64,000 nucleotides of DNA from Escherichia coli (lineage in GTDB: Bacteria; Pseudomonadota; Gammaproteobacteria; Enterobacterales; Enterobacteriaceae): assembly GCF_003334355.1 (NCBI RefSeq), contig NZ_QOWP01000015.1; one strand, written 5' to 3'. Under the pieces are notes generated by a model. That model was not told the DNA's origin. It searched no databases and saw only the letters and a list, made by a program, of their open reading frames with translations. The first letter of the stretch is position 1; each line of letters begins with the position of its first letter. Position numbers and translations under genes: made by a program. Below, one piece after another: positions 50,286-50,734 of this stretch.

Positions 50286-50734
50286 GTGGCGATTAATTTC
50301 AGCCCTAAGGTTGGTGAAATACTGGAATGCAACTTTGGTAACTATCCTGTTAGCCAAAATGGACCGTTCAGCACGACGTATTACGATGGCCGCATTCCTC
50401 CTGAAATGATAAAAAACAGGTTAGTTGTCGTGCTCAACGGAAAAATTAATGGCAACGCATGCATCGTCGTTCCATTATCAACCACTCGCGACCAGACAAG
50501 TTAAAACGTGGAATGCATGTTGAAATAGCCAGTAATGTTATCAATGACCTGCAATTCTTTGATCAGCAGATTCGTTGGGCCAAAGCCGACCTGGTACAAC
50601 AAGTCAGTCGAAACAGATTAAACAGAGCAAGGACTTACAGAGGGTATCTTAATCAATGTTTGCCACATGAGTTGGTTGCAGACATACAGAGGGCGGTCAT
50701 CAAGTCAATCAATGCCATATCGCTCATAAATTGA
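50286..50734 (+). pseudogene. yifN: PemK/MazF-like toxin-family gene interrupted by a frameshift
   Basis: GTG 50286 with SD aaggag; frame 1 ends at TAA 50502-50504 (…NACIVVPLSTTRDQTS); a second frame continues to 50734 (…KLKRGMHVEIASNVINDLQFF…); pattern G-I, VVVLN, IVVPLST resembles MazF/PemK. Confidence 0.6.

Follow-up and report, generated by a model that had tools for sequence, protein, structure and literature searches.

Gene content of the rep–ppiC interval

The window, a stretch of 64,000 nucleotides of Escherichia coli DNA, carries the gene order gppA–rep–yifN–ppiC–ilvC, in which rep lies on the minus strand (48048-50069) and ppiC occupies positions 50933-51214. Between these two genes lies a locus identical at 449 of 449 positions to the pseudogene yifN (b3777) of strain MG1655. 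Sequence, boundaries and position between rep and ppiC are all shared, and no difference separates the window feature from its K-12 counterpart; the two are the same object. PGAP labels the corresponding span in identical strains [quoted passage not shown], and a genome-evolution study refers to the "pseudogene yifN" by name (PMC4340650). The features of the locus, together with related lesions and loci in other genomes, are collected in Table 1.

Table 1. Features of the yifN locus in the window, and associated lesions and loci elsewhere
Feature	Position	Strand	Evidence or source
yifN pseudogene (b3777 equivalent), predicted MazF/PemK fold, 1-nt deletion	50286..50734	+	MG1655 identity, PGAP, intact-allele alignment
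Variable segment with yifN, 845 bp	50072..50916	.	Alignment against ~68-bp ST131-type spacer, genome census
Shine-Dalgarno-like AAGGAGAGG 5' of GTG start	50270..50278	+	Direct sequence reading
Frame A, with 69 codons of the native gene before the aberrant QTS and TAA; beta1-beta3, R45 and S65 included	50286..50504	+	ORF, alignment, intact-protein model
T-deletion site; CCATGAC (His70 CAT) to CCAGAC, outside any homopolymer run	50494..50495	+	Alignment against intact alleles
Native codons 71-149 and stop, now in the -1 frame	50495..50734	+	ORF, alignment
GC-rich hairpin GCCCGGA-UUU-UCCGGGC followed by UUUUG, terminator-like, 3' of yifN	50808..50834	+	RNA fold
Frameshifts near codons 88 and 102; 11-residue in-frame deletion; N- and C-terminal replacements resembling IS junctions			E. 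coli, Shigella
Disrupted-yifN protein clusters P0018, P0020, P0036, P0002, P0021, P0022, P0028, P0104			E. coli, Shigella
YifN-like gene directly after primase-domain protein, 2-nt gap			Glaesserella p1701
YifN-like gene directly after 428-aa Rep-like ORF, 4-nt overlap			H. parainfluenzae
YifN-like gene directly after serine recombinase			Actinobacillus
YifN-like gene directly after RepM/RepE-like C-terminus			Shewanella, 2.2-kb contig
YifN-like gene directly after HTH_36/DnaD_N protein			Massilia, Herbaspirillum
Replicon-coupled YifN-like loci	L058:367-2204; L062:1-1730; L061:3165-4205; L036:22-711; L048, L049 ~3400-4450

The sequences flanking yifN contain few recognizable signals. The hairpin downstream of the gene was not called by a consensus terminator scan, and its folding suggests that it might function as a terminator. 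A promoter scan of the plus strand from rep to the yifN start revealed no sigma-70-like site. Further downstream, a GC-rich imperfect palindrome, CCCTCTCCCTGTGGGAGAGGGTCGGGGTGAGGGC, occupies positions 51255-51288, after the ppiC terminator hairpin (51219-51243) and before ilvC. The ppiC–ilvC spacer measures 86 nt in the window against 45 nt in O157:H7 and in strain GN03551. Given this difference of about 40 bp, the palindrome, a small repeat-like element, may represent an indel.

A single deletion splits the reading frame

Intact yifN is present at the equivalent place in O157:H7 strain F8952 and in strain GN03551 as an uninterrupted 450-bp gene encoding 149 amino acids. In the three-way alignment of the window with these alleles the only difference in length is one T, absent from the window between 50494 and 50495. 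The comparison with orthologs thus locates the indel to a single base, and the frameshift proposed in the initial annotation to split yifN corresponds to the loss of this T.

The remaining elements of that description are likewise borne out by the sequence. The frame between rep and ppiC that was said to start at GTG behind a Shine-Dalgarno sequence begins at 50286, downstream of AAGGAGAGG, and this start is consistent with the N-terminus MAINFSPKVGE seen in the family alignment. Frame A encodes VAINFSPKVGEILECNFG...RLVVVLN...ACIVVPLSTTRDQTS, the residues of the proposed PemK/MazF-like N-terminal segment, and its translation spans VAINFSPKVGEILECNFG...KNRLVVVLNGKINGNACIVVPLSTTRDQTS before ending at the TAA codon at 50502-50504. 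The second, overlapping frame, described as running from 50459 and holding the C-terminal half, extends from ATG 50459 to TGA 50732-50734 and encodes 91 amino acids (frame B). A stretch of 46 nt (50459-50504) is common to the two frames, and direct reading finds no Shine-Dalgarno sequence before ATG 50459.

Apart from the missing T, the allele is well preserved: it differs from the divergent intact allele of GN03551 by 15 synonymous and 2 nonsynonymous substitutions. The frameshift is the sole lesion of yifN in the window, and decay has barely begun. Of the earlier characterization of the gene as a decaying solitary toxin, the solitary state stands, as no partner is found at the locus; the decay does not, the gene being intact except for one base; and "toxin" is to be read as the label of a family.

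YifN belongs to the MazF/PemK superfamily

The protein encoded by intact yifN matches the Pfam model PemK_toxin (PF02452) with E=2.4e-10 and 41 bits over model positions 15-108 of 109, which answers the proposal of a PemK/MazF relationship with a significant profile match. Taken alone, frame A matches model positions 15-48 (E=0.0047) and frame B positions 47-108 (E=0.0021). Since the frames match consecutive pieces of one domain, their sequences identify yifN as one gene and not two; and since the intact ortholog is significant by itself while the halves fall on consecutive parts of the model, a chance match is excluded.

The structure of the intact protein was modelled with AlphaFold2 from a 35-sequence family alignment; the model describes the ortholog and not the product of the window allele, and reaches a mean pLDDT of 78 and a pTM of 0.73. 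The predicted fold is an SH3-like beta-barrel of the MazF/CcdB type with a C-terminal helix. All 50 of the best 50 Foldseek matches of the model in the PDB are MazF toxins, which come from M. tuberculosis, B. subtilis, S. aureus and B. anthracis, with target-normalised TM scores of 0.65-0.78.

Residues E40, R45, P63 and S65 of YifN are placed opposite E24, R29, P50 and T52 of E. coli MazF (the authentic MG1655 sequence) by both hhalign and MAFFT, in agreement with each other, and are invariant across 35 family members. In MazF, R29 and T52 form the catalytic pair, and the mutation E24A is inactivating. The direct match of the YifN family profile to E. coli MazF in a one-sequence search is not significant (E=0.02-0.04). 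The proposed equivalence of the active sites rests on low-scoring alignments that are mutually consistent and agree with the Pfam coordinates and the predicted fold. Because the residues equivalent to MazF E24, R29 and T52 are family-invariant, intact YifN is most likely a MazF-type endoribonuclease.

Other searches delimit the relationship. The YifN family profile found no MazF match in a sequence search of the PDB; hhalign of YifN with B. subtilis MazF, for which an approximate query sequence was used, aligned the C-terminal part alone with negligible probability; and the curated models of NCBIfam and PADLOC did not match YifN. PHROG 15698, to which no function is assigned, matches it with E=2e-31. 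The anti-restriction protein DarA of phage P1, the lone match of the profile in the PDB, was considered as a homolog and rejected: its E-value of 0.38 does not reach significance, hhalign aligned 38 columns with a probability of 51%, and no counterpart of the domain's first half is present in the N-terminus of DarA. A motif FF.D....W..DL....S..RL is common to YifN residues 84-121 and DarA residues 47-84 (L064:1863-2462). PHROG 26978 matches the same stretch of YifN with E=0.015, too weakly for a homology call.

Compared with the MazF/PemK/Kid toxins (E. coli MazF, B. subtilis MazF, 4MDX, and M. tuberculosis MazF-mt1, 6KYT), YifN shares the Pfam match, the predicted fold and the equivalents of E24, R29 and T52. 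It differs from them in lacking an adjacent antitoxin of the MazE/PemI type, both here and throughout its family, and in being about 40 residues longer. The additional length includes an insertion of about 17 residues in the loop between beta1 and beta2, which carries the conserved motif DGRIPPEM(V/I)KNR and is modelled at low confidence.

Taken as a whole, the interval 50286-50734 is almost certainly the K-12-type yifN of E. coli, a gene for a 149-aa protein of the MazF/PemK fold inactivated by the loss of one T in codon 70. The frameshift in the window is an already catalogued pseudogene; its recognition is correct but ordinary.

Distribution and inactivation of yifN in E. coli

The complete rep–yifN–ppiC arrangement is found in approximately 3985 of 5426 complete E. 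coli genomes. The yifN segment is absent from the other ~1440 (~27%), ST131 among them, where rep and ppiC are 86 bp apart and an unrelated spacer of ~68 bp takes the place of the 845-bp segment (L013:571-656). The exact 44-mer with the T deletion occurs in 1228 of 3925 complete genomes carrying yifN, K-12 derivatives included, while the extra base was present in all sampled matches that were not identical to it. The intact 45-mer of O157 has an exact match in 1078 genomes.

The deletion seen in the window is one of several ways in which yifN has been inactivated. Six or more further disruptions of independent origin are apparent from the protein clusters of E. coli and Shigella (Table 1), and IS1 and IS3 insertions are found in the yifN region of some genomes. 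Between lineages, intact alleles show pN/pS ratios of 0.04-0.07, a level of sequence conservation that indicates strong purifying selection. Superficieibacter electus possesses an intact gene, 83% identical, in a conserved slot between rep and ppiC. Absence of the segment from some genomes, independent lesions, purifying selection and the synteny with Superficieibacter, taken together, mark yifN as an old accessory gene, maintained in some lineages and repeatedly lost in others.

Absence of an antitoxin

The 216-bp region between rep and yifN (50070-50285) holds only two short ORFs, of 22 and 28 amino acids, and nothing antitoxin-like, in keeping with the initial annotation, which had seen no upstream ORF that could serve as an antitoxin. 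Downstream of yifN in the window there is no credible ORF and no antitoxin-like gene. The same holds for the relatives of yifN: about 50 homologous loci were examined, and no conserved antitoxin partner was found in them. When every ORF lying up to 1.2 kb from the yifN-like gene was included in a clustering across 42 loci, no common family emerged beyond the synteny in Serratia and RadC beside the copies of Xanthomonas. Close upstream ORFs were considered as hidden antitoxins and rejected; the real-looking ones are replication-type proteins. Plasmids of 6-7 kb with a YifN homolog carry rep, mob and resistance genes and no small partner gene. The absence of an antitoxin is a trait of the whole YifN family and not a product of decay at this locus. 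YifN therefore does not satisfy the definition of a type II toxin-antitoxin system as a module of two genes, though it lies within the MazF fold superfamily.

The closest parallel to this configuration is MazF-mx of Myxococcus xanthus, which has no neighbouring antitoxin gene and is neutralised by an unlinked regulator. MazF-mx and YifN have in common the MazF fold and the missing neighbour; the likeness is drawn at the level of the superfamily, and the relatives of YifN differ from MazF-mx in their setting, which in most cases is a plasmid or an integrative island in Proteobacteria. Since antitoxins form a diverse group whose genes may lie in trans, a missing neighbour does not prove a missing neutraliser.

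Intact YifN might be a type II toxin of the canonical kind, with an antitoxin that was overlooked or is encoded elsewhere, for example as a small unannotated ORF or a trans-acting protein similar to MazE or ChpS; the K-12 frameshift would then have allowed survival after the loss of the antitoxin. The Pfam membership, the predicted MazF fold and the retained active-site residues all agree with such a view, as do the recurrent inactivation of yifN in E. coli and Shigella and the solitary Myxococcus MazF controlled by an unlinked protein, which is mentioned in a passage of PMC2701414. In most E. coli carrying yifN, however, the allele is intact, subject to purifying selection and without a partner beside it; the 42 loci compared share no conserved adjacent ORF, and the yifN-like genes of 6-7 kb plasmids are accompanied just by rep, mob and resistance genes. 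We consider this explanation rather unlikely.

A MazF-fold family associated with mobile elements

The YifN family is small. A word-indexed search returned 135 matches, and 31 clusters were found at E<=1e-30 among 1.84 billion representatives. Its members range over Enterobacterales, Pseudomonas, Aeromonas, Shewanella, Xanthomonas and Burkholderiales, and many copies are found on mobile elements that include the IncP-7 plasmid pCAR1, the large plasmid of P. savastanoi 1448A, IncF plasmids of E. coli and integrase-bearing islands. The paralog on E. coli IncF plasmids is 54% identical to YifN and is represented by about 70 records. On plasmid pE92-2 (L059:5001-5474) this paralog has no adjacent antitoxin and lies near the DinQ-like type I toxin dqlB and a RelE/ParE-RHH pair.

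In Pasteurellaceae, Shewanella, Massilia and Herbaspirillum, the yifN-like gene of small plasmids and contigs overlaps the gene preceding it by up to 4 nt or is separated from it by up to 20 nt, and no small antitoxin-like ORF is seen. Replicons of this size leave little room for a hidden partner.

These observations allow the tentative proposal that YifN-type proteins form a distinct, antitoxin-free branch of the MazF fold, borne mainly by mobile elements: the IncP-7 plasmid pCAR1, IncF plasmids, islands in Pseudomonas and Xanthomonas, and small plasmids in Pasteurellaceae and Shewanella. As the genes are repeatedly coupled to those of initiators, primases and recombinases on small replicons, YifN might be a narrowly targeted RNase with a role in the maintenance or control of replicons, or in conflict between elements, rather than a classical addiction toxin. 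Its restraint could stem from the insertion in the beta1-beta2 loop or from a partner acting in trans.

Predicted products of the frameshifted allele

Initiation at GTG 50286 would yield a fragment of 72 residues, composed of 69 native residues and the aberrant QTS. According to the model of the intact protein, this fragment contains strands beta1-beta3 and lacks beta4-beta7 and the C-terminal helix. As the rest of the barrel and the helix are missing, the fragment is expected to be non-functional. The downstream frame is most likely silent, given that its ATG at 50459 is not preceded by a ribosome-binding site.

The two frames could in principle be joined by programmed ribosomal frameshifting or by transcriptional slippage, in which case K-12 would make full-length YifN. 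A -1 shift anywhere inside the 46-nt overlap would restore the protein. Direct reading of the overlap, however, finds neither a slippery heptamer of the form X XXY YYZ nor a homopolymer run, the deletion site itself reading CCA|GAC, and an Rfam search of both strands from 49800 to 51400 returned no family. Intact orthologs are ordinary single ORFs, and the unrelated disruptions of yifN in other lineages of E. coli and Shigella fit loss and not recoding. Judged by these features of the sequence, recoding at yifN appears to be absent, and the production of full-length YifN by K-12 is very improbable.

It is equally improbable that the two ORFs are independent genes, or that they encode a functional split protein with reassembling halves. 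The 91-aa downstream ORF is sometimes called alone by gene callers (cluster P0064, with 156 member sequences). Against its autonomy, the halves fall on neighbouring stretches of a single Pfam model, ATG 50459 lacks a Shine-Dalgarno sequence, the break in the frame sits within the core of the predicted beta-barrel, and in each of the 35 relatives aligned from other genera the protein is one polypeptide chain. The independence of the two frames, raised in the initial annotation as the finding that would overturn it, is contradicted by the orthologs, which show one continuous gene encoding 149 amino acids.

An artefact of sequencing or assembly is a negligible prospect even though indels of one base are frequent among assembly errors, as the exact deletion sequence is present in 1228 complete genomes, the MG1655 reference and K-12 derivatives included, and the site of the deletion is not a homopolymer.

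A report of yifN translation requires comment. In a Ribo-RET preprint (10.1101/520783), the main text assigns two initiation sites to yifN, while the legend of Figure S6 names yjfN and places the upstream start of yjfN 9 nt away. We do not accept the preprint as evidence for translation of yifN: the triplet 9 nt upstream of 50286 is GGT and not a start codon. The "yifN" of the main text is probably a typographical error for yjfN, and the mismatch could mislead readers into citing the work as evidence of yifN expression.

Significance for annotation and for the YifN family

Placement of the lesion at a single base is useful for the annotation of yifN and for repair of the allele. Beyond what was already known of b3777, the analysis adds the exact base, its frequency among genomes, the 845-bp accessory segment, the active-site residues and the absence of an antitoxin across the family. 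The name "type II toxin-antitoxin system toxin" given by PGAP may mislead censuses of toxin-antitoxin systems that count orphan toxins, because the examined members of the YifN family have no conserved partner.

No functional study was found in the literature on yifN/b3777, orphan PemK or the PemK of pCAR1. What novelty is left lies in the biology of the intact YifN family alone, and we regard it as a lead of low probability. The chromosomal yifN of E. coli would, under the tentative proposal of a mobile-element-borne family, be a domesticated or stranded copy that has been lost repeatedly. The family as a whole offers a tractable case of how a host tolerates a predicted MazF-fold RNase that has no antitoxin.
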